Virus record (IMG/VR): IMGVR_UViG_3300045988_184146
Direction: 5' to 3' (one strand)
DNA: 64,000 nt
DNA from: a virus
Within the stretch, counting starts at the first letter, position 1; each line of letters starts with the position of its first letter. The position numbers and the translations under genes were made by a program. This document shows positions 4,743 through 20,311 of the stretch, piece after piece. The notes under the pieces are model-generated. The model searched no databases and was not told the DNA's origin. It saw only the letters and a list, made by a program, of their open reading frames with translations.

Positions 4743-5084
4743 CTAATTAGGTCTTGAACTGTCGAAATAATCCGTTGAATGATTGTAAGTTCTATATATT
4801 TTCTCCTCCTTATCCTCGTGCTCTTTTGATTCTCCCTTACCTTTTGGTAATTCTCTGGTAAATACGTATTTGATTTTATCATAAACCGACGTATTTTCGA
4901 CACCATATTCACTAAACTTTTCTGGAATAACAAAAGTGAAGACGAATGCAACTGATAAGAAGAATATTACGTGCAAAAATATAAAAATAAAAAACAACTT
5001 CTTTTTTCTACTTTCCTTGTTAAGATTGTTCTTTCTTCTTTTATTGTTTAATGAAAACTGATTCTTTCTTTTAAAATTATTCAT
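4743..5084 (-). CDS. small basic membrane protein (113 aa)
   Basis: AGGAGG SD 6 nt upstream; Lys/Arg-rich N-terminus then TM helix. Confidence 0.6.
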   Translation of the reverse strand: MNNFKRKNQFSLNNKRRKNNLNKESRKKKLFFIFIFLHVIFFLSVAFVFTFVIPEKFSEYGVENTSVYDKIKYVFTRELPKGKGESKEHEDKEEKIYRTYNHSTDYFDSSRPN

Positions 5085-5169
5085 AATTTTCCTCCTAAAT
5101 TTTGTTAATTTTTGAAAAATTATATTAGAGAAAAAGAGCCCACTAACAAATGGACTCTTTTTCTAATGG

Positions 5170-6066: not shown

Positions 6067-6099
6067 AACAACCTTCTTTCTACCAGTTTTTACTGGATT

Positions 6100-6150
6100 T
6101 ATATTTTTATTAATTATAATTAAAATAAAAATAAAAGAAAGAAGGTGCCT
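6100..6150. promoter_or_regulatory. divergent promoter region with palindromic -10 (TTAATTATAATTAA) apparently serving genes on both strands
   Basis: TATAAT readable on both strands; module hairpin + SD follow in each direction. Confidence 0.4.
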
Positions 6151-6152
6151 TG

Positions 6153-6743
6153 ATGGCAAAATTAAAAGAATTAGAAAAGAATATTTTCTATAAAAAGGAA
6201 CTTATCGAGACCGGGTCTCAACTAGATTTGGTTAAGTGGCGGTTTGATGAACTCGGGATGGATTTGTCTGATTTAACACGAATCGTTTACGAACATCAAC
6301 ACACATACTATTCTTTCCTTGATAAGAAAGAATGTGAGAATGCAATTCGAAAGGTTCTCAAGAAACGTGAGATCCAACAAATTCTCATTACTGCAATTAA
6401 TCTAGACGTTCTCTGTGAACAAGGATTGTTGCTGGAACCACTGCAAAGTATGGTATGGAAGGACGAGGGGACGTTCGGAGTCGATGAGGTTCTGATTCAT
6501 TCCGCACAATTGTTTGGGTCAATCGGTATCGCAAACGCCTACAATCTTGACAAAGAAAAGCCTGGAGTTATTGGTCTTACTGACAAGGTTGGTAAGAACT
6601 CCAAGTACTGCAATACGTTCTTAGATGACGCACTTTGTGTTGTCTGTGGTGCTGCAATGGGTAAGATTGCTCATTCTTACGGATTGGAAGCTCAGGAACA
6701 ACTGGCGGGTGCTCTCGATGACAACCTGCTAGACACTCTATAA
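6153..6743 (+). CDS. hypothetical protein (197 aa), GC-rich relative to surroundings (about 43% GC)
   Basis: ORF with SD AGAAAGAAGG; terminator 6751..6772. Confidence 0.75.
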   Translation: MAKLKELEKNIFYKKELIETGSQLDLVKWRFDELGMDLSDLTRIVYEHQHTYYSFLDKKECENAIRKVLKKREIQQILITAINLDVLCEQGLLLEPLQSMVWKDEGTFGVDEVLIHSAQLFGSIGIANAYNLDKEKPGVIGLTDKVGKNSKYCNTFLDDALCVVCGAAMGKIAHSYGLEAQEQLAGALDDNLLDTL

Positions 6744-6830
6744 CAATTAAAGGACTAGACAGTCCTTTTTCTGTTATAATTAAAGAAATAAATTTATCTG
6801 GAGTTATTCCAGTAGAAAGAAGGAAAGAGT

Positions 6831-8348
6831 ATGGTAATCGACACTAAATCTAACAAAACTAAAGTTAGCCCGATTAGTTACGAATTGAACTCTGTTATTT
6901 GGGCATACCTGAATAAATTGATACAGGTATTAAAAGATGATGATTGGTCAAGTTGGGGGGTTATTGTCGGTGAACGACTATGCTTTCCTGACGGTAACTT
7001 TGGTACAAATTTAGTTGGTTTCGACCTAACTAATAAAACAATAACGTTATCATCTAATGGACTTTTAGGTAAAGATGATTGCTTACTACCGGATATGAAC
7101 CTGTATAAACGATTTTGGATAAAATACAATTTTAAGACAACCTTTAAAAGTGATATTTTAAATAATCTTGGTTCCGACACATTATCTAGCAAACTCAACG
7201 TTGAGGATTTAATTGAAAAACTTTTAAATTTGATTTGCGAAGCCTATATAGACGATAAGACAATCGAGAATAGATTTGAATTTTGGAAGCAGATTTCTCT
7301 AGATCGAGATTTAAATTCTTACACTAATCTTCTTGATTATTTGAAAGATGAAAAGTTATCTAAAAATTCAGATTTGTTTTTAAAAGATCTTTTAACTAAA
7401 TATTTTGTTGAATATTCCAAAAAGAATCTTAAACTTATTAAGGATTCAGCCTACAAATTTGGATACGACCTTAAAGAATTTGAGAAAATTGTTCCTGGTA
7501 TCATCACCAAAGATTTTATCAATGATATAATGGATTACAATAACTATCAATATAATAGATTTTATCAGGATAGCTTGTCTAAGTCCGGTAAATATTCACT
7601 TAGTCTATTCAAATTCTTTTTAACAAACTATCAGTTATTTAAGGAGAGTGTTTTGAGTCGAGAGGATTCAAATTACAGAGATAATTTGATAGTATTATCC
7701 ACTATTTTATTCTTGGTGGAAGAAAATCAGTATTTTAATACAATAACATTTTCGCCTAAAATATCAGCTTTGTACCAGTCTGATACATCGGCTTATGATA
7801 TTGCAGCAAAAGACCTCCTTAATTTATTAAAGGAAGAATTTGGCACTGTAATTGTAAGAGTTGATTGCATTCGCTATCTTATTTACAGTAAGGAGATTCG
7901 TGGTATTCACTCATCTTTAGGAAAGAACGATTTTTCTATCAGAAATTTTTCATCTTTGTTGAAAAATATTCGCTCTTTAGGTAAAGATAATTTTGAGCTT
8001 GTAATGAAATACAATAATCGTATAAGTGCAATCCCAGATAACGTTTTACTGATAAGTAAACACAAAAACGTTCCAACCCTTTTGATGGAAGTTAATTATT
8101 TTAAAGAATACAAATATTCAATTAGAGAAGAATATCTGTATTACAGCAATTTAATTGATGTTGCTAAAGACACAAAAGAGTTGTTATCTGAATCATCTAA
8201 AGATAAGATTGTATTGCTGGATGATTTTCAGAAGGAGTGTGGTGAACAAATCCAGAAGATGGGATACAATCGTTTTTTAGGATTTTTTAGAAAAATCTTA
8301 TCAAAATTAAAATCAGAAAAAATAAAATCAATTTCTGATTTTCTATGA
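6831..8348 (+). CDS. hypothetical protein (505 aa), Asn/Lys/Asp-rich
   Basis: module (TATAATTAAAGAAA, hairpin CTGGAGTTATTCCAG, SD) upstream. Confidence 0.8.
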   Translation: MVIDTKSNKTKVSPISYELNSVIWAYLNKLIQVLKDDDWSSWGVIVGERLCFPDGNFGTNLVGFDLTNKTITLSSNGLLGKDDCLLPDMNLYKRFWIKYNFKTTFKSDILNNLGSDTLSSKLNVEDLIEKLLNLICEAYIDDKTIENRFEFWKQISLDRDLNSYTNLLDYLKDEKLSKNSDLFLKDLLTKYFVEYSKKNLKLIKDSAYKFGYDLKEFEKIVPGIITKDFINDIMDYNNYQYNRFYQDSLSKSGKYSLSLFKFFLTNYQLFKESVLSREDSNYRDNLIVLSTILFLVEENQYFNTITFSPKISALYQSDTSAYDIAAKDLLNLLKEEFGTVIVRVDCIRYLIYSKEIRGIHSSLGKNDFSIRNFSSLLKNIRSLGKDNFELVMKYNNRISAIPDNVLLISKHKNVPTLLMEVNYFKEYKYSIREEYLYYSNLIDVAKDTKELLSESSKDKIVLLDDFQKECGEQIQKMGYNRFLGFFRKILSKLKSEKIKSISDFL

Positions 8349-8496: not shown

Positions 8497-10398
8497 TTGA
8501 GAAACAATAAAAAAATTCTAAATAGGATTGCAGGATCATCTGCTATTGTTATTACAGCTCTAGGTTCTGGAGCTGGTGCAGTAGCAACTCAGATTCCTGG
8601 AATTATGAGTACAGTTCTTGCTGAAGAAGCTAAGAACGTCAATGCAACAGCAACCCTTGATGTAGGTATTCAAGAAAATAGTAATTTTGGACGAACTGAT
8701 AAATTCGAAATCAGTGCCGAAGTAAAACAACCAGTCAAGGAAGGCGATACTGTAACATTTACAGCTCAAGGTATTAGTGCTACAGCCTTAAATAATCAAG
8801 AAGTTAAAACTGCTGATGGTACTGTAATTGGTGTTATCAAGGCTAAGGTGGGAGTTGGTTCTCCGACAGGACCTGACTATTGGAAAACTGTTTATTATAA
8901 AGATAAAAACAACCTCTCAAAAGAAAACAAAGACTTGAAACCTACAGACCAAGAAGTTTCTGAGATTCAAGTTGTATTCAACAAGAAAGCAGAAGAGTTC
9001 CAAAATCTATCCTTTAAAGTTGGATCAAATAATAATCGAACAGTTATCACTGTGCCAGTAAAAGATAAGGTTGAAAAAATCAATATCAAGCTTGGTGAAA
9101 AAACCCTAGTTGAAAAGGAAAATAAAGTTTCTGCTGCTAAAATTGTTCCAAATAATTTAAATAAAAATTATTTTGGAGTTATTAGTGAAACATCGAATAT
9201 CTACAACACAGAGAAAGGTTTAGGTGGTGGTGTTTCCACATTCGGCTCAGTGCCAGCAAAAAACAAAGGTTTTAAGACGGGTGATAAATTCACAATTGAA
9301 TTACCTAATGACGCTGGAGTAAAAGTTGATGTTAATCGTGCCTATAAAGTTGGAGAGGTTATTACACTAAGTCACGGTAGACTTTTAAGGGAAGAAGTTA
9401 CAACAGTGAACACTAACGGTGTTATACTTACACAACAAAATGATATTAAAGTCAAAGTTGTGGAGATTAATGCTGATAAAGCTGTTTTTGAAGTTGTTGA
9501 TCAGCCAAACTTTTATTACGAAGATGTTAACATTCCATTGGCTGTTGTTGCAACAGACGTAAGTAAAGTTGATCAAGCAAACAACCGTGTTAATGTTAAG
9601 TTCAAAACATCTTTCGAATCAAAATCAGATCCAACTTTAAATACTACAGAAGAATCAAAAGACGCTTACATTCCAATTCGTGGAACAAGCCTTTCTTCTA
9701 CTGGTGTTAAATTAGAGTTTAAAACAACACAATGGCGTGACGTTGATACGAATAAGAACCTGAAAGCTTCTAAGGTTGACACAAAGACTTATCCAGCTGA
9801 TAAGATTGAAGGTTACACTTTTGTTCGTACAGATACAGATACAAAAACTGGTAACGTTATCCACTTCTTCAAGAAGGTTGGTGATACAGGATCACGTGAT
9901 GATGTAAAGGATATTAAGACAACACGTTTCCTTGAAAAAGGAACAAATAAGGTTCTTAAACCTGAACAAAAAGGTGATAAATTCTTAGAATCCGGAACAA
10001 TAGATGGTTATACTTTCGTAAATTCTGAGGTAAAAGGTGATATCACAACTCACTTCTTTAAGAAAGCTGAAGAACCTAAAAAGCCAGAAGTTCCTAAAAC
10101 TACAGAACAACCTAAGACTACGGAAGTTCCAAAAACAACTGAAGAGCCTAAAACAACTGAAACTCCTGCAACAGAGGAGCCTAAGAAACCAGAAGCTCCA
10201 AAAACAACAGAGGCTCCTAAAACGGAAGAACCTAAAAAGGTAGAAAAACCTAAAACTGCCGACGTTAAAACACCAGACAAAAAAGACGCTGTGAAGACAG
10301 GAGCTAACGCTTCTGTTGCATTCGCTCCACTTATCGGGATTGCCAGCGGTGTTGGTGCTATTGGTGCCGCAGTCTACGTCGTAAAAAAACGTAAATAA
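8497..10398 (+). CDS. cell-wall-anchored surface protein: signal peptide, variable N-terminal region, PK(T)TE proline-rich wall-spanning repeats, AVKTGANAS sorting-signal-like motif + hydrophobic segment + KKRK
   Basis: TTG start with GGGGG SD; classic Gram-positive sortase-substrate architecture; C-terminal about 170 aa nearly identical to 10552..12546. Confidence 0.85.
   Translation: MRNNKKILNRIAGSSAIVITALGSGAGAVATQIPGIMSTVLAEEAKNVNATATLDVGIQENSNFGRTDKFEISAEVKQPVKEGDTVTFTAQGISATALNNQEVKTADGTVIGVIKAKVGVGSPTGPDYWKTVYYKDKNNLSKENKDLKPTDQEVSEIQVVFNKKAEEFQNLSFKVGSNNNRTVITVPVKDKVEKINIKLGEKTLVEKENKVSAAKIVPNNLNKNYFGVISETSNIYNTEKGLGGGVSTFGSVPAKNKGFKTGDKFTIELPNDAGVKVDVNRAYKVGEVITLSHGRLLREEVTTVNTNGVILTQQNDIKVKVVEINADKAVFEVVDQPNFYYEDVNIPLAVVATDVSKVDQANNRVNVKFKTSFESKSDPTLNTTEESKDAYIPIRGTSLSSTGVKLEFKTTQWRDVDTNKNLKASKVDTKTYPADKIEGYTFVRTDTDTKTGNVIHFFKKVGDTGSRDDVKDIKTTRFLEKGTNKVLKPEQKGDKFLESGTIDGYTFVNSEVKGDITTHFFKKAEEPKKPEVPKTTEQPKTTEVPKTTEEPKTTETPATEEPKKPEAPKTTEAPKTEEPKKVEKPKTADVKTPDKKDAVKTGANASVAFAPLIGIASGVGAIGAAVYVVKKRK
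9894..10095 (+). repeat. near-identical DNA segment shared with 12040..12241 (conserved C-terminal module of the surface protein pair)
   Basis: roughly 95% nucleotide identity over about 200 bp while the N-terminal two-thirds of the genes are unrelated. Confidence 0.7.
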
Positions 10399-10551
10399 TA
10401 AAAACTTAAATAAAAATAAAAACTAAGATCGTTGCGAAATACATTCGTGGCGGTCTTTTTTTTGTATATATATAAGAATATAGTTGCAAATATCCTATAA
10501 TACAAAAGAGTGAAGAATGATAAACAATAAAAATTTCGTGAGGGAATAAAT

Positions 10552-12546
10552 TTGACAAATAAGAAAAAATTAATGAATCGTATTGCTGGTTCCTCTGCAA
10601 TTTTAGTAACCGCATTAGGTTCTGGAGTTGGAACTGTATTAACTCAAGCACCGAGCTTATCTAACACTGTATTTGCAGCAGAAGGTAGAGCTGTAACAAA
10701 TATAGAGGGTACTGGTAAACTCGAGATCCTTACAAAACCGAAAGTTGAGGGTACAAAAATTTACAGAACACCACAATTCGATACCAACCAAAGTTACGAG
10801 TTTACGGTGAACGACAGTAATCTTAAGGAAGGCGATTATATCCCAATTCAAGGTGAAGGTTTGAATCTCTTACCAGATGACGTTCGTGTAGGCGAAACTG
10901 TTGTTGGAAAATTGGTTTATGATAAGACAGATTTGAATCTTCCTAAATCAGGAAACTGGAATGCGAGCGAAGATAATGTGAATGACTCGACACATAAACT
11001 TTTAGGAACTCAACATTGGAAGATTGTGTTTAATAAAGAAATCGAGAAATTCCAAAATCCAAAAATAAAACTTGATATTAAAAATAAACGTATTGAGGGT
11101 CACAAGAATTACAAACCTAACGGTGGAGCTGACGTCACGCTATCAATGAAATTTGGTAACAAGATGTTGATAAACGAAACTGTTAAGGTTGAAGGTTTGG
11201 ATAAACCACAAGAAAAAAATGGCATTTACTTTGGTAGTGGTGATGGTTGGTGGACAACTACACTTGAAACAAGTGGAAAGCTCGTCAGCGATAATTTCTT
11301 TCCAATGGCAGTTACTACACCACTAAACGAATCAGGGCAACCAAACTTTGAAGTTGGAGATTTAATTGAATGGAACTTTGGTGAAGGAAGTGAAAACTTC
11401 GTCGTAACTCCGAAAGATTATGTAAAACTTGGTAGCGAATTAAAACACGTTGACACATTAGATAATTTCAATCTAACTTCTTACAAAGTAAATAAAAATA
11501 CAGGTGCTATCTTAGTTGATGATAACAATGTAAAAGTTAAGCTTGTCGAAGCTGGTAAGAATAAAATTGTGGTACAAGTCGTTCGTGCAGGAGCCCCTGG
11601 TACAATCTCAAACTTTGGAAATGATTTCAAGGCAGAACTTACATCAACTAAAGGTGTGGACTTAAACAAGATGGTTGCGCCACCAGTCGCAGTAAACACA
11701 AAACTAATCCGTAACGGAAAAGTTTTAGCAGAGCAAAACAGAAACTTTACTCCTAAAATTTCAGGCGTAGCAATCGGTGCCAACGCTAATTTAGTTAAAC
11801 GTGGATCTGTTGTAGTTACAGGTGTTGATGAACAAGGTAAGAATCTATTCAAAGCGGTTGTTGCTATAAACAACGAAAAGGTTGGTACAGACTACAAGGT
11901 TGATGAATCCAAATACAACAAAGTTGAAGGATACACATATTCTGGACTTAAACAAGGATCTGCACCAGTTTCAGGTAAAATTATCGAGGGAACTCAAACA
12001 GTTACACTTCTATTTAAGAAAAATCAAGATGAGAAACCTCGTGATGATGTAAAGGATATTAAGACAACACGTTTCCTTGAAAAAGGAACAAATAAGGTTC
12101 TTAAACCTGAACAAAAAGGTGATAAATTCTTAGAAGCTGGAACAATCGACGGTTATACTTTCGTAAATTCTGAGGTAAAAGGTGATGTCACAACTCACTT
12201 CTTCAAGAAGGCTGAAGAGCCCAAAAAGCCAGAAACTCCTAAAGCAACTGAGACCCCTAAGACAACTGAAGAACCTAAAAAAGTAGAAGAACCTAAGACC
12301 ACTGAAATTCCTACGACAGAAGAACCTAAGAAACCAGAACAACCTAAGACAACAGAAGCTCCTAAAACGACAGAAGAGCCTAAAAAGGCTGAAAAACCCA
12401 AAAACCCTGATGTGAAAACACCAGACAAGAAAGAAGCTGTTAAGACTGGAGCCAACGCTTCTTCTGCAATAGCTCCACTAATTGCTGTTCCTATTGGATC
12501 TGGCGTAATTGGTGCTTCACTATATGTTTCTAAAAAACGTAAGTAA
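10552..12546 (+). CDS. cell-wall-anchored surface protein, second member (different N-terminal region, same C-terminal stalk/anchor)
   Basis: TTG start; same signal peptide motif NRIAGSSAI; C-terminal sorting signal. Confidence 0.85.
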   Translation: MTNKKKLMNRIAGSSAILVTALGSGVGTVLTQAPSLSNTVFAAEGRAVTNIEGTGKLEILTKPKVEGTKIYRTPQFDTNQSYEFTVNDSNLKEGDYIPIQGEGLNLLPDDVRVGETVVGKLVYDKTDLNLPKSGNWNASEDNVNDSTHKLLGTQHWKIVFNKEIEKFQNPKIKLDIKNKRIEGHKNYKPNGGADVTLSMKFGNKMLINETVKVEGLDKPQEKNGIYFGSGDGWWTTTLETSGKLVSDNFFPMAVTTPLNESGQPNFEVGDLIEWNFGEGSENFVVTPKDYVKLGSELKHVDTLDNFNLTSYKVNKNTGAILVDDNNVKVKLVEAGKNKIVVQVVRAGAPGTISNFGNDFKAELTSTKGVDLNKMVAPPVAVNTKLIRNGKVLAEQNRNFTPKISGVAIGANANLVKRGSVVVTGVDEQGKNLFKAVVAINNEKVGTDYKVDESKYNKVEGYTYSGLKQGSAPVSGKIIEGTQTVTLLFKKNQDEKPRDDVKDIKTTRFLEKGTNKVLKPEQKGDKFLEAGTIDGYTFVNSEVKGDVTTHFFKKAEEPKKPETPKATETPKTTEEPKKVEEPKTTEIPTTEEPKKPEQPKTTEAPKTTEEPKKAEKPKNPDVKTPDKKEAVKTGANASSAIAPLIAVPIGSGVIGASLYVSKKRK

Positions 12547-12650
12547 TATTTTAAAATAAAAGATTATCACTAAATAAGTTTAGTGATAATTTTTTTATAA
12601 AAAAAAATTATTTTTATTAAGCTATAATAGAGAGAGAAATAAAAAAAGGA

Positions 12651-14483
12651 ATGGTATTTATCTTGAATAAAAGAAAATTGTCATCTATTTTGGCTACTGG
12701 TGCATTAATGGTAACGGTGGCCCCTGCATTAGGAACATTTGTACAAGTAGGTAATAATATCGCACACGCAGAAGTTTTCAAAGCCGGATCTACTGGAACA
12801 CGAACGATTAAATTTAATGTAAAAGCTGGAGAATCAGTGACCTCAAAGACTGAAACTGTTACAGAGCCAGTTGATTTGATTCTCGTTGTGGACGGATCTG
12901 GATCTTTCACAGAACCTTTTAATGATGGTAAAAATCCATCTCGAAGAAAATTCCAAGCTGCTCTTATTGACGCTGCGAAGTTAGTTGAATCTCTACCAGA
13001 GGGCTCTCAGGTTATGATTGCTTCCTATACTTGGAATACGACAGAATCTTACACATCTAATAGAATCACCAATTTGATTCCTAAAGCGGACGCTGCTAGA
13101 ATTTTGAAAGATATCCTAAACAAACCATCTGATTTAGACTGGTATACAACTTGGGAAAGATACTTATCTGATGTGGATAAAAAGATTTACAGCTCTTACG
13201 AAAAATTACCATACGAAGAAGCATACGAGAAAAGTACTGCCAAGAAAAACAAGTACGTTTCTGTAGTACAATTCACAGATGAATGGGTGCCTAATGAGGA
13301 TATTGATACATCTTTCGCTGAGTGGTCTAAGAAGAATGCGAAGACCTTTATGAGCGTCATTTACAACAAGACTGATAACCCTGCAATTTCTGAAGCTCAG
13401 ATGAAGAAAATCGGACATCCAAATATTTATAACGCACGTGGAAAAACTGACGATCAACGTCAAAAGGATATCGTCGAAAAATTTAAAACATCAGGTTTGA
13501 AAACAACAGTTATTAAAAATCGAGTTTCACCAGATGGTGTTGTGACAGTTAAAGCCGAAAAAGGTGTTGATATCACAGAGGTTGAATTAGTATCTCCTAA
13601 AGGAGTAAAAGAAAAACTTGAAAAGCAACCAGGTGACGCAATCTCTTGGTCTTGGAAGGGTAAATTTGCTGAAGATGGAGAATATACTCTAAACTACAAG
13701 TTTACTGGTACACCATCAGAAACAAAATCAATTACTGGTACTGTTCAAGTCTCAAATAAAGAGGTAGCGAAAGCTGTTGATACAATTGAACCTAACAAAT
13801 CTTCTGATGTCGATACCGCTAAAGAGGACATTCCTTTTAAAACGATTGAAGAAAAGGATCCAACACTTCCATTTGGTGAACGTAAGGTTAAGGTTAAGGG
13901 TGTTCTCGGTGAACGCACGATTACAAAGACATACGATGTTCTTAATGGAAAACGTGTGGGTGATCCTAAAGTTGATACCAAGGTTACAAAAGAACCAGTT
14001 GACGAAGTTGTTCTTGTTGGTACTAAGGTAGAAGAAAAAGTAACTTACAAGACGATTCATAAAGGTGACGATGGTAAGATTCTCAAGGAAGAAAACATCG
14101 CAGCTGAAAAGTCAGAGTTCGAAGGGTACAAGTACGTTAAAACTGAAGCTGACAACTCAGACAAGTTGAATGTTGTGACAACTCACCACTACCATAAGCT
14201 CACCACAACCTACAAGGGTGTTGATGAAAACGGCAAGGAAGTTATTTTAGAAAAAGTTGACGGAACTAAGGACAAGAAAGACTTCAAGGGTTACATCTTC
14301 GAAAAGACAGAAAAATTAGACAACGGTGACGTGGTTCATCACTACAAGGCTAAAAAAGCTGATGAGAAGAAAAAACCAGTAGAAACTGGAGCTTCAGCTG
14401 GATCAATGTTACTTCCAATTGGTGCACTAGGAGCCTCTGTTGCTCTTGTTGGCGTCGCTAAGTTTAAATCTAAAAGAAAATAA
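12651..14483 (+). CDS. surface protein with vWA domain (DLILVVDGSGSF MIDAS motif), G5 domain and C-terminal PVETGAS sorting signal + TM + KSKRK
   Basis: signal peptide; vWA and G5 motifs recognisable; alternative start at conserved downstream TTG (12663). Confidence 0.85.
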   Translation: MVFILNKRKLSSILATGALMVTVAPALGTFVQVGNNIAHAEVFKAGSTGTRTIKFNVKAGESVTSKTETVTEPVDLILVVDGSGSFTEPFNDGKNPSRRKFQAALIDAAKLVESLPEGSQVMIASYTWNTTESYTSNRITNLIPKADAARILKDILNKPSDLDWYTTWERYLSDVDKKIYSSYEKLPYEEAYEKSTAKKNKYVSVVQFTDEWVPNEDIDTSFAEWSKKNAKTFMSVIYNKTDNPAISEAQMKKIGHPNIYNARGKTDDQRQKDIVEKFKTSGLKTTVIKNRVSPDGVVTVKAEKGVDITEVELVSPKGVKEKLEKQPGDAISWSWKGKFAEDGEYTLNYKFTGTPSETKSITGTVQVSNKEVAKAVDTIEPNKSSDVDTAKEDIPFKTIEEKDPTLPFGERKVKVKGVLGERTITKTYDVLNGKRVGDPKVDTKVTKEPVDEVVLVGTKVEEKVTYKTIHKGDDGKILKEENIAAEKSEFEGYKYVKTEADNSDKLNVVTTHHYHKLTTTYKGVDENGKEVILEKVDGTKDKKDFKGYIFEKTEKLDNGDVVHHYKAKKADEKKKPVETGASAGSMLLPIGALGASVALVGVAKFKSKRK

Positions 14484-14599
14484 AAACTAATTTATAAGTT
14501 ATAAAAAGGTATCTAAATTGGATACCTTTTTGAATTTTTAAAACCACTAAGAATATCGAGATATGATAACCTATAATAGATAAAGAAATAAAAAAAGGA

Positions 14600-16438
14600 T
14601 TGGTACTTATTTTGAATAAAAAATTATCATCTATCTTGGCTACTGGTGCATTAATGGTTACTGTATCGCCAGCACTTGGAACTTTTGTTCAGGTTGGCAA
14701 CAACATCGTACACGCAGAAGCCTTTAAAGCTGGTTCTACCGGGACACGAACATTAAAATTTAATGTTAAAGCTGAAGAAAAAGTAAATACAAAAACCGAG
14801 ACTGTAGCTGAACCGGTTGACTTAATTATGATTATTGACGGATCAGGGTCTTTTATTGTTCCTTTCGATAGTGGAGACAATCCACAGAGACAAAAAGTAA
14901 ACGTGGCGTTAAGTGACGCTTTGAAACTTGTAGAATCTCTTCCTGAAGGATCACAAGTTATGATTGCCTCTTACACTTGGAACTCAAAAGATTCTTACGC
15001 AGCGAAAGGTGTTAGTAATTTAATTTCAAAGGCTGACGCCATCAAAACTCTTAATGATATCAAGGACAAATCAAAACTATCTGATTTTGACTGGTACACA
15101 ACTTGGGAGAATTATCTTAAGACTGTAGATTCAAAAATTTACAATAAAAATTCTGAAACTCTTCCATACGAAGAAGCATACGAAAAGAGCACAGCTAAAA
15201 AGAACAAGTACGTATCTGTAGTTCAATTTACAGATGAGTGGATTCAGAACGAAGACATCGACACCTCTTTTGCTGATTGGTCTAAGAAGAATGCGAAGAC
15301 TTTTATGAGTGTCATTTATCCTAAAATTAATGGAAGTACAAAGTCTGAAGAGCAGATGAAAAAAATCGGACACCCTAATATTTACAACGCTCGTGGAAAA
15401 ACTGACGCAGTACGACAAAAAGATATTATTGAAAAATTCAAAAGCTCTGGTTTGAAAACAACTGTCACCAAGGATCGTATTTCTCCTGACGGGGTTGTAT
15501 CTGTTAAAGCAGAAGACGGTGTAGATTTGACGGAAGTTGAGTTGGTATCTCCTACTGGAGCAAAGAAAAAACTTGAAAAAAACTCCGGTGACGCAACATT
15601 TTGGTCTTGGAAAGGCAAACTAGAAGAAGATGGTGAGTATACACTTAATTACAAATTTACGGGTACACCTTCTGAGACTAAAACTATTACAGGAAGTGTG
15701 CAAGTTTCAAATAAAGAAGTGGTAAAAGCAGTTGATACGATTGAGCCTAACAAGTCAAGTTCTGTAGATAAATCAGAAGAGGATATTCCTTTTAAAACGA
15801 TTGAAGAAAAGGATCCTACACTTCCACTGGGAGAACGTAAGGTTAAAGTTAAGGGTGAAATCGGTAAGAAATCCACCACTAAGACTTACAATATGGTGAA
15901 CGGTAAACGTGTGGGTGATCCTAAAGTTGATACCAAGGTTACAAAAGAACCAGTTGACGAAGTTGTTCTCGTTGGTACCAAAGTAGACGAAAAAGTAACT
16001 TATAAGACTATTCACAAGGGTGACGATGGTAAGGTTCTTAAAGAAGAAAACACTGCTGCCGAAAAATCCGAGTTCGAAGGATACAAGTACGTTAAAACAG
16101 AATCTGATAATTCGGATAAGTTGAACGTCGTGACAACTCACCACTACCATAAGCTCATCACTACCTACAAGGGTGTGGATGAAAACGGCAAGGAAGTTGT
16201 TTTAGAAAAAGTTGACGGAACTAAGGACAAGAAAGACTTCAAGGGTTACATCTTCGAAAAGACAGAAAAATTAGACAACGGTGACGTGGTTCATCACTAC
16301 AAGGCTAAAAAAGCTGATGAGAAGAAAAAACCAGTAGAAACTGGAGCTTCAGCTGGATCAATGTTACTTCCAATTGGTGCACTAGGAGCCTCTGTTGCTC
16401 TTCTAGGAGTTGCTAAGTTTAAATCTAAAAGAAAATAA
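14600..16438 (+). CDS. surface protein, tandem paralogue of 12651..14483 (about 80% identical, 3' 250 bp nucleotide-identical)
   Basis: same domain order; alternative TTG start at 14612 giving MNKKLSSILATG signal peptide. Confidence 0.85.
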   Translation: MVLILNKKLSSILATGALMVTVSPALGTFVQVGNNIVHAEAFKAGSTGTRTLKFNVKAEEKVNTKTETVAEPVDLIMIIDGSGSFIVPFDSGDNPQRQKVNVALSDALKLVESLPEGSQVMIASYTWNSKDSYAAKGVSNLISKADAIKTLNDIKDKSKLSDFDWYTTWENYLKTVDSKIYNKNSETLPYEEAYEKSTAKKNKYVSVVQFTDEWIQNEDIDTSFADWSKKNAKTFMSVIYPKINGSTKSEEQMKKIGHPNIYNARGKTDAVRQKDIIEKFKSSGLKTTVTKDRISPDGVVSVKAEDGVDLTEVELVSPTGAKKKLEKNSGDATFWSWKGKLEEDGEYTLNYKFTGTPSETKTITGSVQVSNKEVVKAVDTIEPNKSSSVDKSEEDIPFKTIEEKDPTLPLGERKVKVKGEIGKKSTTKTYNMVNGKRVGDPKVDTKVTKEPVDEVVLVGTKVDEKVTYKTIHKGDDGKVLKEENTAAEKSEFEGYKYVKTESDNSDKLNVVTTHHYHKLITTYKGVDENGKEVVLEKVDGTKDKKDFKGYIFEKTEKLDNGDVVHHYKAKKADEKKKPVETGASAGSMLLPIGALGASVALLGVAKFKSKRK

Positions 16439-16451
16439 TGAGTTAATTAAT

Positions 16452-16487
16452 AAAAACAAAAAAGGTATCTAACCCAGATACCTTTTT
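16452..16487. terminator. bidirectional intrinsic terminator (AAAAGGUAUCUAACCCAGAUACCUUUU)
   Basis: perfect stem flanked by A-run and U-run; sits between convergent genes. Confidence 0.65.
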
Positions 16488-17017
16488 TAATCTTCTGCCG
16501 CAGCTAGTACAGCCAGTACATCATCAGCTACAGCATTGACCACATCATCGAATGTAGCTTTATCAAATGCAAAGTCTACAAACAAATGACTGTTTGTGGG
16601 GTGGTCGAAATCGATGATAACCTCATCAATTAGGTTATCAGAAACGGTTACATCCCAACCCCAAGAAGCTACTGCAAGAGGCTTTCTTGACACGAAGCTA
16701 AAGAAATCCTTTCGGAACTTAAGCTCGTCATTTGGGTTCTTGATGACCCATAATGATTTGCTATGGTTGACTTTTTTAAAGTCCATCAAAGCTTTAGCCA
16801 CAACATCTTTATCAAAGATGTCAGCCTCTTTCGCTTTAGCAACAATAGAAATTGGATCATTGCTGTTCAAAAAACTAGTAGTACGTCTGTTAGTTCTAAT
16901 ATTTTGAACATTTACAATATGATCAACTCGACCTTTAAGAGAGCTGATCATTTTTGTTGCTGTAGTTGATTTATTCAAGAAATCAACTACTTCTTCTTTT
17001 GTGAATGTTGTTTTCAT
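16487..17017 (-). CDS. hypothetical protein (176 aa), paralogue of 48430..48930
   Basis: start set at Met-8 (MKTTFTKEEV) because the track's upstream Met codons are the SD itself (GAAAAGAAGGAG); C-terminal VDFAFDK..DDV..A motif shared with paralogue. Confidence 0.75.
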   Translation of the reverse strand: MKTTFTKEEVVDFLNKSTTATKMISSLKGRVDHIVNVQNIRTNRRTTSFLNSNDPISIVAKAKEADIFDKDVVAKALMDFKKVNHSKSLWVIKNPNDELKFRKDFFSFVSRKPLAVASWGWDVTVSDNLIDEVIIDFDHPTNSHLFVDFAFDKATFDDVVNAVADDVLAVLAAAED

Positions 17018-17131
17018 ATTTTTCTCCTTCTTTTCCAAACATCTATGTTTGGTTTTTTATTATTATTTGTAATAATTATATTTATTAATTTATTTTATTA
17101 CAAAAAATAAAAATAATAAAAAAATTCTATT

Positions 17132-17160
17132 GACAAAAAATATTTTTTTTACTATAATAA
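17132..17160 (+). promoter_or_regulatory. consensus promoter TTGACA-17 bp-TATAAT (copy B)
   Basis: perfect hexamers; drives the element below. Confidence 0.6.
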
Positions 17161-17166
17161 TATTAG

Positions 17167-17292
17167 CGATAAAACGCCCTTCGCTACAAAAATTCAAAGA
17201 GGGTTTTTTCTAGTAAAGTGGTGATGGCTACCATACATCACCCTATCTCTTACATTTATATTAAGGGGTTGCTTTGCAGCCTCTTTTTTTTA
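17167..17292 (+). ncRNA. candidate small RNA (copy B): conserved 5' hairpin/pseudoknot segment, middle hairpin GGUGAUG..CAUCACC, terminator GGGGUUGC..GCAGCCUC + U8; no ORF follows on this strand
   Basis: own promoter and own terminator; 5' 45 nt identical to leader at 1062. Confidence 0.45.
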
Positions 17293-17352
17293 TTTATATT
17301 GAAAGTAAAAAAAAGACCGGCTAGGTCTTTTAATTATCTAAATTTGATTTCG

Positions 17353-17898
17353 TCACAAGCAATAAGATTTGATTTCCTCTATAAATAATTCAGTTTGAAG
17401 TTCATCAAATAGAATTTTTGTATTGGTGAGATTATTGTTAATAACTCCGCACTCATCGTAACTAATAAAGAATAACAAGGTTTGTACAGTTTTAACATCC
17501 GTCTTAGACAAATCTCCCTTAATAAACTTCTTTATCAAAACTTGCGAAGCAACTCTCATTTTATTAAAAAATAAGGAATTGTCACCGGAATCAAATCCTG
17601 GAACAGAAAAAGAGATCCCGGTTCTGAGCAATGAATCAGAACTCTCAATTTCTGGTACAGAATATTTGTTCTTGATGACGAAACATCTTTTACTTGGAAT
17701 GTAATAAAGCTCCAAAGTGTCATCAGTTGGAAGTTTTAAATTTTCGATTTCATCAATATTGCTTGAAGAATCACATTGCAAGAATGATAATCCACCAGAA
17801 TCAATGCTAATGATAGTACCTTCAGAAATGGAATCAATATCTTCCAAAAGTGATTCGAAACCAATAAATTTATTGTTATTATTTAAAGTTTTAATCAT
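17353..17898 (-). CDS. hypothetical protein (181 aa)
   Basis: start at MIKTLNN with AAAGAAGGAG SD; terminator AAAAGACCGGCUAGGUCUUUU downstream. Confidence 0.7.
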   Translation of the reverse strand: MIKTLNNNNKFIGFESLLEDIDSISEGTIISIDSGGLSFLQCDSSSNIDEIENLKLPTDDTLELYYIPSKRCFVIKNKYSVPEIESSDSLLRTGISFSVPGFDSGDNSLFFNKMRVASQVLIKKFIKGDLSKTDVKTVQTLLFFISYDECGVINNNLTNTKILFDELQTELFIEEIKSYCL

Positions 17899-18027
17899 TT
17901 TGTTCTCCTTCTTTCCCCTTCTAAAATTCATTTAGTTTTTATCTCTCTCTGAAATTATATCAGAATCTTCTTTTTCTTTTATAATTTGAGAAAGATATTT
18001 TATATTAAGAAAGAAGGTATTATATTA

Positions 18028-18636
18028 ATGAAAAAATACAATCGTATTGCAATCGAGGGTGGGGAAGGCGTTGGTAAATCAACCGTCTTAGATATCCTCA
18101 AGAAAAAACTCGATCCGGAAACGACTCTGTTTGTCAAAGAGCCTTACGAAAAATCATCTGTCGCTAATGATATCATTCGTTGGCGAAAAGGAGATATCGA
18201 TTTGGATGAAATTGAACAAACTGAGCTTATGGCGAAATCACGTGCTGAATTGAACAATCAGGTTGTTATTCCGGCAATTAATGACGGAAAAACTGTTGTT
18301 TTTGACCGATCTATCATCTCAAATTTGGTCTATCAGTTGACGGGAACACATCTGACTCGTAATGAAATCATTGACATCAACTTAGCAGAAGATGAGAATA
18401 TGACTCTTCCGGATTTGTGTGTTTTAATCGACGCTGATCCTCGTGCTGTACAAGATCGACTAAATAAAAATGGTCGAGAATGTGACGCTATCGATTCGAA
18501 ACCTCTTGAATTTCATTATCAAATTCGAGATGAGTTCTTGAATCTCTCAGAAGACTTCCCTTGCGATTTTCTAATCCTATCCGGATTTGACGATCCTGAA
18601 GTTAATGCAGAGAAGATTCTTGAATTGCTGAACTAA
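18028..18636 (+). CDS. tmk: thymidylate (dTMP) kinase
   Basis: P-loop IAIEGGEGVGKST near N-terminus, DRS/DRY-like motif VVFDRSI, about 200 aa; start set at ATG after AAGAAGG SD. Confidence 0.85.
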   Translation: MKKYNRIAIEGGEGVGKSTVLDILKKKLDPETTLFVKEPYEKSSVANDIIRWRKGDIDLDEIEQTELMAKSRAELNNQVVIPAINDGKTVVFDRSIISNLVYQLTGTHLTRNEIIDINLAEDENMTLPDLCVLIDADPRAVQDRLNKNGRECDAIDSKPLEFHYQIRDEFLNLSEDFPCDFLILSGFDDPEVNAEKILELLN

Positions 18637-18826
18637 AAACAGAAAAAGCACCGCTTAAATAATTGCAGTGCTTTTTTTGTTGTTTTTTACGATGATAGAT
18701 TTTCTTAAATAAAAAATATTTAAAAAGAGGATTCAAAAAAAATCTTCTTTTTTTATAAAAAAACTATTGCTTTTAATTATTTTATTTGATATAATGTTCC
18801 TATCACAAATATAGGAGGAGTCATAT

Positions 18827-20311
18827 TTGGACTTAGGTATTATTTTTTGGATTATTGGGGGATTAGTTGGATTCCTTGTGCTCTTGTCATTGTTTTACGC
18901 AGGGTACGTGATTGCACCACCAAACCAGGCAGTTGTTATTACTGGTGGAGGGAAACAGCGTGTGCTTCTTGGTGAAGCAGGTTGGATGATTCCGTTTCTA
19001 TCTACACGAAATTACATCTCTGTAGAGCAATTTAAAACTGATGTAAAAACATCAAACTTTGTTCCTACGAAAGATTTTATCAACGTTAAAGCTGACGCAG
19101 CAGTAACTCTTAAGATCGGAACATCAAAAGAAATGCTTGCCGCAGCTGCTGAAAACTTCTTGAACTGGAATACGGAAGATATTTCTGCACAAGTAACAGA
19201 CGTTCTTGAAGGTAATCTTCGTGAAATTATCGGCCAGATGAACTTGCGTGAAATGGTAAATAACCGTCAAGAATTTGCTGGTAAAGTACAAGAAAATGTT
19301 AGTCCCGACCTTGCCAAGATGGGTATTGAAGTTATCGCCTTTACAGTTCAAAGTTTCGAAGATCAAAACAACGTAATTCTAGACCTCGGTGTTGATAATA
19401 TTGTTGCGATCAAGAAAGACGCTGCGATTGCACGTGCTATTGCAGAGCGTGAAGAAAAAGAAACTAAAGCTGAACAAGACCGTCTCGCTAATGAGGCACG
19501 TGTCACAGCTGACCTTGAAATTTCTAAACGTCAAAATGAACTAAAAATCAAGCAAGCAGAACTTCAAGCGGTATCAGACGCAGAAATTGCTAAGAGTGCC
19601 GCAGTTCTTGAGATTGAAACAGAGCGCCAACGTAAAACTATCGAGTTCGAGCGTTCACAAGCTGATATCACGAAACAAGAACAAGAAGCGATTATCGCCC
19701 AAAAAGGCGTTGAAGTTCAACGTCAATATTTAGCTGCCGAAGTTGAAGCTGCTGCCGACGCAGAAAAATACAAACGTGAACGTGAAGCTGAAGCACAACT
19801 TGCACTTAGTCAACGTGAAGCTGAAGCTCAATTGTACCGTGTACAAAAAGAAGCTGAAGCTCAAGAACGCCGTGCTGAATCTAATCGCCGTCAAGCTGAA
19901 GAAGAAGCTAAAGGTATTGAAGCTAAAGGTCGTGCTGAAGCGGAAGCCATTCGTCTTCGTCTAGAAGCTGAAGCTGAAGGTTTAGAGAAGAAAGCAGAAG
20001 CCCTTGCTAAAATGGATCAGGCTGGTATTGCTCAAATGTACTTCGAGGTTCTTCCTCAAGTTGTTGCAGCGGCAACTCAACCACTTGCTAACGTTGATAG
20101 TATCACAATGTACGGAGAAGGTAACAACTCTAAGATGATTGGTGATATTATGACAAGTATCAGCACCATCAACGAAGGTTCTGGAATGGACATCCGACAA
20201 CTTCTAAGTGGATTGGTTGGAGCCAACATCACTGGAAATGCGATTGGAAGACAAATCAAATCTGCAACAGTTGAAGAAGTTCCAGCAACTCCTGAAGTTG
20301 TTTCAGAATAG
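18827..20311 (+). CDS. flotillin-like SPFH/band-7 membrane protein
   Basis: N-terminal TM, SPFH core, long Ala/Glu-rich coiled coil (AEAEAQ repeats) typical of bacterial flotillins. Confidence 0.85.
   Translation: MDLGIIFWIIGGLVGFLVLLSLFYAGYVIAPPNQAVVITGGGKQRVLLGEAGWMIPFLSTRNYISVEQFKTDVKTSNFVPTKDFINVKADAAVTLKIGTSKEMLAAAAENFLNWNTEDISAQVTDVLEGNLREIIGQMNLREMVNNRQEFAGKVQENVSPDLAKMGIEVIAFTVQSFEDQNNVILDLGVDNIVAIKKDAAIARAIAEREEKETKAEQDRLANEARVTADLEISKRQNELKIKQAELQAVSDAEIAKSAAVLEIETERQRKTIEFERSQADITKQEQEAIIAQKGVEVQRQYLAAEVEAAADAEKYKREREAEAQLALSQREAEAQLYRVQKEAEAQERRAESNRRQAEEEAKGIEAKGRAEAEAIRLRLEAEAEGLEKKAEALAKMDQAGIAQMYFEVLPQVVAAATQPLANVDSITMYGEGNNSKMIGDIMTSISTINEGSGMDIRQLLSGLVGANITGNAIGRQIKSATVEEVPATPEVVSE

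Follow-up and report, generated by a model that had tools for sequence, protein, structure and literature searches.

Mosaic surface proteins are well known in streptococci; in the Alp/Rib, PspA/PspC and M-like families, which are chromosomal and carry LPxTG or choline-binding anchors, recombination between paralogous or allelic genes homogenises the leader and the anchor and reshuffles the modules. Sorting signals that depart from LPxTG are also known. The (S/P)PxTG motif of C. difficile, the proposed NVQTG and the (Q/E)VPTG of S. pyogenes pilins (TIGR03065) are each a pentapeptide with TG at its end, set in a sorting signal that is otherwise canonical, and C. difficile SrtB failed to cleave the valine-containing NVQTG in vitro (PMC4155245). 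A third point of comparison is the Inocles, elements of 245-395 kb with a GC content of 32%, rich in IS and with 88.9% ANI within the group, whose reported host is S. salivarius and which are reported to encode a RecD-like helicase, gyrase, an S26 signal peptidase, sortase A, a PBP and six families of proteins with an “LPXTG-like motif” (PMC12340149). The latter reportedly carry a signal peptide at the N-terminus and, at the C-terminus, the motif plus a transmembrane segment (Kiguchi et al. 2025, PMC12340149).

The locus described here lies in a stretch of 64,000 nucleotides (“the window”; IMG/VR record IMGVR_UViG_3300045988_184146) and, a point absent from an earlier sequence-only reading, it is carried on a giant (~350-390 kb) plasmid-like extrachromosomal element and not on a chromosome. 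Judged by properties shared with the published description and not by a sequence match, this element very probably belongs to the Inocles, a recently described group of giant plasmid-like elements from oral streptococci. Like the Inocles (Kiguchi et al. 2025, PMC12340149), it is giant, IS-rich and low in GC (0.28-0.39 in 2-kb windows, mostly ~0.30-0.35), and most of its genes are unknown; nearly all neighbouring ORFs are without a Pfam match, and the window encodes a RecD2-like helicase, a GyrB-like protein, a DUF3991-Toprim protein, a divergent DNA polymerase and copies of TnpB. Related contigs are up to 349-385 kb long, strains share 85-92% identity, and on one related contig an S26 signal peptidase adjoins a protein with the same anchor as the locus proteins. 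The InoC marker was not found in the window and the Inocle_004 primer sequences were absent; phage collections, plasmid collections and IMG/VR gave no matches, and GTDB genomes none except two distant (38-40%) TnpB relatives. The features of the locus are as follows.

8497..10398, + strand: gene 1, 633 aa; signal peptide (~aa 1-42), MSCRAMM-like two-Ig head (aa 45-400), two SSSPR-51 units, PK(T)TE repeats, sorting signal
9895..10089, + strand: 195-bp stalk module (SSSPR-51) in gene 1, of the gene-2 type by conversion, with a sharp junction at 9895
10067..10245, + strand: wall-spanning PK(T)TE repeats in gene 1 with a period of 18 bp (TRF)
10288..10395, + strand: sorting signal of gene 1 as read from sequence (AVKTG, 27 hydrophobic residues, KKRK)
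10425..10457, + strand: terminator-like hairpin after gene 1
10552..12546, + strand: gene 2, 664 aa; head paralogous to that of gene 1, MucBP-like and SSSPR-51 units, PK repeats, AVKTGANAS anchor (12436-12543)
12040..12234, + strand: gene 2 copy of the 195-bp module common to gene 1
12549-12602: 54-bp palindrome after gene 2
12618..16491, + strand: tandem duplication; ~1.95-kb unit including ribosome-binding region and terminator
12651..14483, + strand: gene 3, 610 aa; signal peptide, vWA domain with MIDAS (~aa 70-290), beta-sandwich, G5 (aa 388-459), SSSPR-51 units, PVETG sorting signal (14376-14480)
14245..14447, + strand: 203-bp tract identical to 16200-16402, the core of the 3'-end conversion tract of genes 3 and 4
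14502-14532: terminator-like hairpin after gene 3
14600..16438, + strand: gene 4, 612 aa (start at 14612 in the public gene call); tandem duplicate of gene 3, PVETG signal at 16331-16435
16457-16489: terminator-like hairpin after gene 4

The sequence-only reading had described a four-gene surface-protein locus with cassette-like architecture; its observations are confirmed in part, and its interpretation is partly supported. The four same-strand ORFs are there at exactly the coordinates given, as are the PK(T)TE repeats, and all four genes are complete and encode a signal peptide of their own. Terminator-like sites number 11 where shuffled sequences lead one to expect 4.3. The assignment of the stalk domains is clear for both SSSPR-51 (TIGR04308; 42-61 bits in the locus proteins, cutoff 35) and the G5 of gene 3 (Pfam E 1.8e-18). 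In the most probable reading, the locus comprises four adhesin genes that are transcribed independently and whose products sortase links to the cell wall, is carried on an Inocle-type element and evolves by duplication, conversion and module turnover.

A vWA domain had been proposed for genes 3 and 4, and it stands; the Pfam match is weak, the structural one firm (Foldseek, gene 3: vWA 4fx5, E 3.7e-12), and the MIDAS residues D81, S83, S85, T209 and D210 of gene 3 are invariant in 29 sequences. Matches of gene 3 to vWA and integrin beta I-like domains span E 1e-12 to 1e-9, the G5 of SasG/Aap is matched as well, and Aap and SasG are also its sequence matches in the PDB. The gene 1/2-type head has no Pfam or PDB sequence match, and in structure it comes closest to monomeric MSCRAMMs. 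The N-terminal regions of genes 1 and 2, earlier called unrelated, are in fact distant paralogs (25% identity over 314 aa for the heads alone, E 9e-5) behind near-identical signal peptides. Genes 1 and 2 would display an MSCRAMM-like double-Ig head, and genes 3 and 4 a metal-dependent vWA/MIDAS head whose fold comes from structure comparison and whose ligand-binding is putative, on stalks of SSSPR-51, G5 and Pro/Lys-rich repeats. The MSCRAMM-like heads have only 10-16% sequence identity to described MSCRAMMs (Cna, Ace, the Srr1/Srr2 binding regions, FnBPA, Clf/Sdr), and the anchor motif differs from theirs in not being LPxTG. As in the G5-E periscope proteins SasG/Aap and in streptococcal SSSPR-51 proteins, the G5/SSSPR-51 stalk is elongated and its repeat number strain-variable, but unlike SasG/Aap there is one G5 per protein and variation arises by paralog module swaps besides changes in repeat number; SSSPR-51 is also mentioned in a paper on periscope proteins (10.1101/2020.12.24.424174).

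The proposed ligands are host or bacterial. The adhesins could mainly serve the element itself, as mating-aggregate proteins resembling aggregation substance that assist conjugative transfer rather than colonisation of the human host. This we consider unlikely: no T4SS genes were found beside the locus in the 82 kb examined, and the head folds are nearer to the host-matrix binders Cna, Srr, Ace and FnBPA than to PrgB. Such a role would concern the ligand and not the mechanism of anchoring, and is compatible with the main explanation.

Comparison of sequences supports the reading of the locus proteins as surface adhesins that end in a sortase-type signal with a pentapeptide other than LPxTG. 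Their C-termini run from AVKTGANAS or PVETGASAG through ~27 hydrophobic residues to KKRK or KSKRK. The motif of the family, [A/P/S][V/I]xTGA, is kept in all close homologs and is carried by just 29 clusters among 1.84 billion representative proteins; K[D/E]AVKTGA is kept in 104 of 107 gene-1 homologs and P[V/I][E/K]TG[A/S] in all close homologs of gene 3. The 29 clusters are diverged and have unrelated heads, and the TG is invariant across them. Other proteins with unrelated heads and the same anchor are one of 903-945 aa, encoded immediately upstream of the window, a V8-like serine protease and proteins of GbpC type. Distant homologs of gene 3 (~25-38% identity) have LPKTS, LPNTG, LPKTN or YA[E/K]TN at the same site, followed by a similar hydrophobic segment and basic tail. 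Anchor models of Pfam and NCBIfam give no match with the full-length proteins; TIGR01167 (LPXTG_anchor) gives 17.0 bits against a cutoff of 15.9 with the isolated C-terminus of gene 1, over profile positions 4-33 only, and falls below it (13.1) with the gene-3-type C-terminus. Strong as the conservation of KDAVKTGANAS is, part of it could stem from gene conversion and not from recognition by an enzyme.

That the motif is not LPxTG had already been noticed; its nearness to the clostridial (S/P)PxTG is loose, since the latter keeps proline at position 2 where the locus motif has valine or isoleucine. NVQTG and (Q/E)VPTG do share valine at that position, although the locus C-terminus scores only 11.1 with TIGR03065 (cutoff 21.35) and, unlike these variant signals, the locus has no class B or class C sortase linked to it. 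At the other end of the protein, a proposed resemblance to YSIRK-G/S-type signal peptides was not borne out, there being neither a YSIRK motif nor a match to a YSIRK model.

From these features, the N-terminal signal peptide would direct export by Sec, and the hydrophobic segment and basic tail would hold the protein in the membrane until, by analogy, a sortase cleaves between the Thr and Gly of [A/P][V/I][K/E]TG and links the protein covalently to peptidoglycan. The enzyme would most likely be an Inocle-encoded sortase with a specificity shifted from LPxTG. No sortase (TLxTC motif or Sortase Pfam) was found in the window, in ~82 kb of its contig or in the other related loci examined, ~150 kb of element sequence in all, and therefore the enzyme is known solely from the published statement on Inocles. 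Together with the loss of both the Leu and the Pro of LPxTG, and with anchor models that are silent on full-length proteins and under the cutoff for the gene-3 type, this would fit C-termini that are plain membrane anchors, escape sortase and keep xVxTGA for a structural or juxtamembrane purpose. We regard that as improbable, as the full tripartite layout is present at the canonical distance, with the motif 35 residues from the C-terminus and wall-spanning Pro/Lys-rich repeats ahead of it; the invariant TG of otherwise diverged clusters and the genuine LPxT[G/S/N] of distant homologs at the homologous position also argue for processing, and a conserved sortase is reported for Inocles (PMC12340149).

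The similarities among the locus genes are beyond chance. Genes 3 and 4 arose, as had been proposed, by tandem duplication (12618-14535 against 14567-16491, 80.2% nt over 1939 bp by self-blastn; proteins 82% identical), and their 3' ends, said to be identical over 250 bp, nearly are, with 245 of the terminal 250 bp matching but an exact run of only 203 bp. The ~95% nucleotide identity claimed for the C-terminal modules of genes 1 and 2 holds for a single 195-bp SSSPR-51 module (95.4%; the 96 bp at 9895-9990 match without a difference), whereas the whole shared C-terminal portion is 86% identical over 442 bp and the PK repeats and anchor 62-82%. Gene conversion between paralogs is upheld, because converted tracts are closer between paralogs of one strain than between orthologs of different strains. 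The gene 1 module, 95.4% identical to that of gene 2, is only 77.4% identical to that of its head-ortholog L2_a and 84.1% to L2_c (strain L002); likewise, within-strain paralog identity is at least as high as between-strain ortholog identity over the ~500 bp at the 3' ends of genes 3 and 4, whereas in their 5' parts orthologs are 90-98% and paralogs 64-82% identical. Conversion falls mainly on the 3' region that encodes stalk and anchor.

Between strains it is the stalks that vary. One gene-1-type head occurs with three versions of a 65-aa module, and across homologs this head type has 0, 2 or 4 extra SSSPR-51 units and 3-13 PK repeats (gap fraction 0.56 in the PK-repeat columns of 45 gene 1 orthologs); stalks are reshuffled across strains, and in gene 1 a sharp junction lies at 9895. 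A five-gene version of the locus is present on a 379-kb scaffold; the gene 2 ortholog L2_b is 86% and the gene 4 ortholog L2_e 95% identical. The earlier image of variable heads on constant stalks is not supported: each head type persists across strains as an orthologous lineage under purifying selection (dN/dS 0.02-0.22, against 0.04-0.05 in neighbouring control genes).

Programmed antigenic or adhesive variation, in which frequent recombination swaps heads onto a constant expression stalk for immune evasion, would draw on the reality of paralog recombination, the difference in gene number between strains (4 or 5), the relative variability of the second half of the gene-1 head (entropy 0.6-1.1 bits, dN/dS 0.19-0.22) and an A6/A7 homopolymer frameshift that inactivates gene 1 in one assembly. 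It is nevertheless very unlikely. The classic layout of such systems, which had been claimed here, is contradicted by copies that are all complete, with no silent or promoterless cassettes; no recombinase or invertase is adjacent, head dN/dS is far under 1, and exchange affects stalk modules and 3' ends rather than heads. Since heads persist under purifying selection and stalks are reshuffled, the locus appears to represent concerted evolution of an adhesin family and not cassette-type antigenic variation. Pilus subunits (a vWA tip adhesin and a shaft) joined by a class C or class B pilus sortase would explain the non-LPxTG motif but are highly improbable, given that the cluster, in contrast to pilus islands, has no sortase gene within or close to it, and given the hairpins after genes 1, 3 and 4, the low TIGR03065 score, top structural matches to monomeric MSCRAMMs and not pilins, long PK-rich wall-spanning regions and SSSPR-51/G5 stalks typical of monomeric fibrillar adhesins, and the same anchor on protease and GbpC-type proteins.

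The adhesin family evolves by tandem duplication, gene conversion between paralogs, and gain and loss of stalk modules. As in the Alp/Rib, PspA/PspC and M-like families, leader and anchor regions are homogenised and modules reshuffled; unlike them, this family resides on a giant extrachromosomal element and its heads are conserved. The outcome is that stalk length and gene number vary between strains and head types are conserved. The locus is most likely among the six LPXTG-like families of the Inocles, for which the main text of the Inocle paper gives no motif, domain content or locus structure (PMC12340149). The motif [A/P/S][V/I]xTGA, the MSCRAMM-like and vWA/G5 heads, and the conversion between paralogs with shuffling of stalks are first described here.

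Four open reading frames on the + strand occupy 8497-16438 of the window, exactly where the sequence-only reading had placed them, and each encodes a protein with a head, a repeat stalk and a C-terminal anchor.

8497-10398, + strand, gene 1, 633 aa
10552-12546, + strand, gene 2, 664 aa
12651-14483, + strand, gene 3, 610 aa
14600-16438, + strand, gene 4, 612 aa

Terminator-like hairpins lie 3' of genes 1, 3 and 4 and a 54-bp palindrome lies 3' of gene 2, so that the four genes look like separate transcription units. A fifth protein with the same type of signal peptide and an AVKTGANAS anchor is encoded some 3-6 kb upstream of the window start (4422-7133 in the related locus L004; also in L005, L006 and L007); its length differs between strains, from 903 to 945 aa, because the number of PKTTEA repeats varies. 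In gene 1, an A6 tract (9257-9262, GCAAAAAACAAAGG) is A7 in a 97% identical assembly (L007, position 19739), where it breaks the gene into an ORF of 259 aa and a gene call of 390 aa that continues past the end of the fetched locus. Either slipped-strand phase variation or an error of assembly could explain the difference.

The N-termini combine a basic n-region and a hydrophobic core with a cleavage region rich in Ala (VLA|EE, AHA|E), features of the Sec signal peptides carried by sortase substrates. In the AF2 model the pLDDT is below 50 for residues 1-41 and the folded part begins at around residue 45. A YSIRK-G/S-type signal peptide had been proposed; the motif [YF]S[IL]RKxxxGxxS was absent from all four N-termini when searched as a regular expression, the models TIGR01168 and PF04650 gave no match even with isolated N-termini at E-values up to 10, and KILNRIAGSSAI is differently spaced, so that proposal falls.

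The G5 domain was clearly matched in genes 3 and 4 (Pfam, E about 2e-18, 67 bits against a cutoff of 23), and the SSSPR-51 stalk unit (TIGR04308) in genes 1, 3 and 4 (42-61 bits against a cutoff of 35). The NCBIfam scan found no TIGR04308 in gene 2, where SSSPR-51 is represented by a sub-threshold Pfam match alone (15.6 bits against 27, E 0.014), together with a weak MucBP match. The Pfam match of gene 3 to vWA was also sub-threshold; its structural model, compared using Foldseek, matched vWA domains (4fx5, E 3.7e-12) and integrin beta I-like domains, with E-values of 4e-12 to 1e-8 for the two together, and the G5 modules of SasG/Aap. Genes 3 and 4 thus combine a Rossmann-like fold with a DxSxS...T...D metal site, and the MIDAS residues of gene 3 (D81, S83, S85, T209 and D210) are invariant in 29/29 homologs, down to 25% identity. 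Sequence matches of gene 3 in the PDB were the G5 domains of Aap and SasG. The heads of genes 1 and 2 are modelled as two tandem IgG-like (DEv-IgG) subdomains, the arrangement of the MSCRAMM ligand-binding region; this type of head has no sequence relative in the PDB. Since in each protein a head is followed by a stalk of repeats, a wall-spanning segment rich in Pro and Lys, and the anchor, all four are predicted from anatomy and folds to be fibrillar adhesins. A role in mating aggregation, in place of adhesion to the host, would be compatible with the same anchoring mechanism and is the least improbable of the alternatives, although we regard it as unlikely.

All four C-termini are tripartite: AVKTGANAS or PVETGASAG is followed by about 27 hydrophobic or small residues and then by KKRK or KSKRK. 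The pentapeptide (AVKTG or PVETG) lies 35 residues from the C-terminus, within the range of 17-45 seen for LPxTG, and the hydrophobic segment and basic tail are as expected of a sorting signal. It differs from LPxTG in that Leu and Pro are both replaced and TG alone is retained. The motif is strongly conserved: K[D/E]AVKTGA is kept in 104/107 gene-1 homologs, the three exceptions being truncated or frameshifted, and the close homologs of gene 3 all keep P[V/I][E/K]TG[A/S]. In distant gene-3 homologs (around 25-38% identity) the same position is taken by LPKTS, LPNTG, LPKTN or YA[E/K]TN, again followed by a hydrophobic segment and a basic tail of similar kind. That the C-termini are simply uncleaved membrane anchors we consider improbable.

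Genes 3 and 4 are a tandem duplication of a unit of about 1.95 kb (12618-14535 and 14567-16491), with 80% nucleotide identity over 1939 bp, flanks included, and 82% identity between the proteins. Identity between the two genes is 63-83% in about the first 1.3 kb and rises to 99-100% near the 3' end, where 245/250 of the final positions are identical and an exact run of 203 bp is found (14245-14447 = 16200-16402); the duplication and its near-identical 3' ends had been correctly recognised from the sequence. For genes 1 and 2, similarity at the nucleotide level starts sharply at 9895 and 12040, respectively. Their C-terminal modules had been described as about 95% identical; the outline is right, but the figure is too high. 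Only the 195-bp SSSPR-51 module reaches that level (95.4%, with an exact run of 96 bp), the PK repeats and anchor downstream being 62-82% identical, and over the 442 bp of the complete common tract identity is 86%. Tandem 18-bp repeats encode the PK(T)TE stretches. The signal peptides of genes 1 and 2 are almost identical, and their heads, which had been taken to be unrelated, are 25% identical over 314 residues (E 9e-5).

The window was compared with a second strain (L002, a 378,990-bp scaffold) whose corresponding neighbourhood is 85-92% identical to the window and carries five genes, in the order gene-1-type, gene-2-type, second gene-1-type, gene 3 and gene 4. The gene-1 module of the window is 95.4% identical to that of gene 2 and 88.7% identical to that of the gene-2 ortholog in L002, but its identity to the modules on the orthologous heads there is no more than 77.4% and 84.1%; since it is nearer to gene 2 than to the modules of its own head-orthologs, gene 2 must have been the donor that overwrote it. 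In the 5' 1.3 kb of genes 3 and 4, identity is 90-98% between orthologs and 64-82% between paralogs, whereas over the final 500 bp or so paralogs within a strain are as similar as orthologs, or more so. Across one 100-bp stretch of the alignment (columns 1400-1499) the L002 pair is 97% identical against 86% for orthologs, and in the 3' part the pair in the window is 99-100% identical against 91-95% for orthologs. As this is seen in both strains, conversion has occurred independently in each lineage. Gene conversion between the paralogs, as originally suspected, is thus borne out.

The suggestion that this conversion serves variable heads on constant stalks is not. Among 44 gene-1-type metagenome clusters a single head type is combined with three versions of the 65-aa module, with 0, 2 or 4 extra SSSPR-51 units and with 3-13 PK units, giving proteins of 633-803 aa. 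The extra units match those of the 903-945 aa protein just upstream of the window, and stalk units of that protein recur in the gene-1-type proteins of L002. The dN/dS values of the head lineages are 0.02-0.22 and peak in the second half of the gene-1 head; those of the adjoining thymidylate kinase and flotillin genes are 0.04-0.05. The heads are under purifying selection; positive selection upon them was rejected, all values being below 0.25. True cassette-type antigenic variation might be suspected where paralogs exchange sequence, but it is very unlikely here: every copy in the locus is a complete gene that encodes a signal peptide of its own, none of the locus genes is truncated or lacks a promoter, the heads are conserved, and the exchanged tracts are stalk modules. 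The pattern instead indicates concerted evolution and stalk-module shuffling of an adhesin family, that is, conserved heads with shuffled stalks, the opposite of the textbook layout for antigenic variation.

A second vWA/G5 gene pair, with anchors PIKTGASAG and PIETGA..., is present in other strains (L020, 10001-13068; L022, 8019-11518) between a gene of 576-579 aa and a guanylate-kinase gene. At this site the window has a 413-aa ORF and a 430-aa TnpB (32867-35977), which suggests that the second adhesin locus is variably present or replaced by IS elements. The paralogous surface-protein genes are also places where short-read assemblies tend to break, one contig ending just upstream of the second gene-1-type gene (L003) and another inside an 860-aa paralog (L015); this fits the remark in the paper describing Inocles, giant plasmid-like elements of oral streptococci, that assemblies fragment at IS copies and “hypervariable regions” (PMC12340149).

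To which class the sorting signal belongs was addressed using existing models. On full-length proteins the LPXTG anchor models (TIGR01167 and PF00746) gave no match. With isolated C-termini, LPXTG_anchor scored 17.0 bits for gene 1 against a cutoff of 15.9, aligning over profile positions 4-33 only, so that the Leu-Pro part is missing; the score for gene 3 was below the cutoff (13.1 bits against 15.9). Nor do the proteins seem to be pilus subunits, which we consider the least probable of the readings weighed and rejected for this locus as a pilus island, since the model for the QVPTGV class of sortase B substrates (TIGR03065) scored only 11.1 bits against 21.35 and aligned to the hydrophobic tail alone. 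The signal had been thought closest to the (S/P)PxTG motif of Clostridioides difficile SrtB, which begins with Ser or Pro and has Pro as its second residue. In the homologs bearing the variant motif position 2 is Val or Ile and never Pro, so the motif is not of this type; further, the Val-containing NVQTG is not cleaved by C. difficile SrtB in vitro (PMC4155245).

Searching a word index with the 47-aa anchor gave no more than three fragments; it was superseded by a full HMM scan, in which a profile of the four C-termini was compared with 1.84 billion representative proteins (E <= 1e-3). Just 29 clusters were found, making the motif nearly unique to this element family. Among the 16 anchor-bearing proteins retrieved from these, SSSPR-51-like stalks are present in all but two, which have protease heads; the heads differ, V8-like serine proteases being among them, and the consensus of the signal is [A/P/S][V/I]xTGA. 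Judged from these alignments it appears to be a sortase-type signal of a rare, family-restricted variant. One related contig (L018) encodes a V8/trypsin-like serine protease with the anchor PIKTGAGAG, adjoining a protein with GbpC and SSSPR-51, with an S26 signal peptidase 8 kb upstream of the protease (1575-2279, 10001-12079 and 12199-14226). The variant signal would accordingly serve enzymes as well as adhesins.

The check proposed with the sequence-only reading, to find the sortase, came back negative: a scan for the TLxTC motif across the window and all fetched loci (around 150 kb) found none, and none was seen in the 10-kb flanks of both window ends or in the loci of other proteins with the same anchor. 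A TnpB copy used as a probe to reach other insertion sites returned the same site only. A sortase A is reported both for Inocles and for the Streptococcus that host them (PMC12340149), and it is on this report that a sortase encoded by the element rests. It is possible, though we hold it tentatively, that [A/P/S][V/I]xTGA defines a private sorting class read by an element sortase whose specificity has shifted from LPxTG and which is orthogonal to the SrtA of the host.

The remainder of the window bears on the replicon that carries these genes, and hence on the refuting condition stated with the sequence-only reading, an organism lacking both sortase and peptidoglycan genes. About 40 of the roughly 50 ORFs scanned had no Pfam match; those that did encode a RecD2-like helicase, a GyrB-like protein, a DUF3991-Toprim protein, two OrfB_IS605-type TnpBs, a guanylate-kinase-like protein and a G5-domain protein without a signal peptide. 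This last (59376-60524, + strand, 382 aa, G5 E 5e-9) also lacks an anchor, has three C-terminal (D/E)(D/E)FPTF(V/E)D repeats and lies between the GyrB-like gene and genes of unknown function; such a domain is not usually seen in what looks like a cytoplasmic protein. A 664-aa ORF (40066-42060, - strand) without a Pfam match aligned over its full length with the phage DNA-polymerase family phrog_1252 (E 2e-38); in the phage collection nothing was closer than Leuconostoc phage polymerases at 22% identity, and it is likely to be the element's own, highly divergent replicative polymerase. Public gene calls add a thymidylate kinase and a flotillin (Band_7/Flot), at 17986-20311 on the + strand, and a weak PgpA match; no tRNA or rRNA genes were found in the window. 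Beyond it, L008 carries PspC and a 1064-aa ClpB-like AAA+ protein (15321-18515). These are membrane and stress functions, which agrees with the theme of stress tolerance that has been reported for Inocles. A gene for a 393-aa TnpB with an HTH_OrfB_IS605 domain ends just upstream of the window (L001, 307-1488), and immediately 3' of it, at the start of the window, comes a RAGATH-18 RNA (21-100, + strand), which scored 72.5 bits where the gathering score is 44.9. IS607 TnpB nucleases are guided by RAGATH-18-derived reRNAs in the same arrangement (PMC11061315), and by analogy the pair is probably an active RNA-guided IS.

The window is part of an 89-kb metagenome contig in ENA, and near-identical or related sequences are present in dozens of assemblies, in contigs of 349-385 kb at the largest. 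A megablast of 25 kb against plasmid and phage collections gave no match; gene 3 had no relative in IMG/VR or the GTDB genomes and, by tblastn against plasmids, a G5-domain match in Finegoldia only; the DNA polymerase had no match in IMG/VR, TnpB had only 38-40% relatives in GTDB, in unrelated MAGs, and none of the surface-protein homologs listed was an NCBI or UniRef entry. A bacterial chromosome was rejected, there being no housekeeping or ribosomal genes in 82 kb, as was a known jumbo phage, there being no structural-protein PHROG matches and no phage matches.

Inocles are circular, plasmid-like and IS-rich, 245-395 kb in size with a GC of 32% (alpha, beta and gamma); more than half of their genes are unknown, ANI within a group is 88.9%, they are absent from isolate genomes and the host of one member is S. 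salivarius (PMC12340149). They encode a RecD-like helicase, gyrase, VirB4/VirD4, a PBP, an S26 signal peptidase, a conserved “sortase A” and six families of “LPXTG-like motif” proteins (PMC12340149). The G+C and IS content of the window (TnpB genes, polymorphic insertions) and the contig size fit the range of 245-395 kb and approximately 32% GC. From the reported gene content, the RecD2-like helicase, the GyrB-like protein and LPXTG-like proteins are in the window, S26 is on the related contig with the anchor-bearing protease and the GbpC-type protein, and no sortase was found. The Inocle marker InoC (about 454 aa, Replic_Relax, PF13814) had no match among the window proteins scanned and is presumably located elsewhere on the element, beyond the 64 kb. 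Nor does the window contain the Inocle_004 PCR primers, a result that is uninformative as to membership. Based on shared properties rather than a sequence-level alignment with deposited Inocles, the window very probably belongs to an Inocle-type element.

Taken together, genes 1-4 probably encode Sec-exported, sortase-anchored adhesins of such an element, with converted 3' modules. The analysis shows the structure of the genes, the folds, the conservation of the motif, the conversion tracts and the properties of the replicon; export, cleavage, the enzyme responsible and the ligands follow by inference. The proteins would be exported via Sec and cut by a sortase between the T and G of the motif, most plausibly by the element's own enzyme; the heads would be displayed on stalks of variable length to bind their ligands, and conversion of the 3' modules would keep the adhesin family coherent. 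In broad terms it has already been published that Inocles encode a sortase together with LPXTG-like proteins; the actual motif and its rarity, the head folds, the architecture and concerted evolution of the locus, and the hypothesis of a private sortase-substrate pair on a giant plasmid are new.

About three quarters of human mouths are reported to harbour Inocles, whose genes are almost all without an assigned function. The locus gives a concrete, testable picture of one Inocle activity, as well as a clean example of stalk and anchor modules that evolve in concert while the heads are conserved. The element would equip its streptococcal host with extra wall-anchored adhesins, whose heads are MSCRAMM-like or of the vWA/G5 type and whose stalks can be adjusted in length. 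If the private class is real, the element could decorate the host wall with its own adhesins, protease and glucan-binding proteins, acting independently of the housekeeping SrtA and not competing with it; an element sortase reading this motif would be a natural orthogonal anchoring system, a sortase-substrate pair carried by a mobile replicon. If true, this would bear on plasmid-host biology and on niche specialisation at oral surfaces, and would offer sortase-based protein engineering a new specificity.
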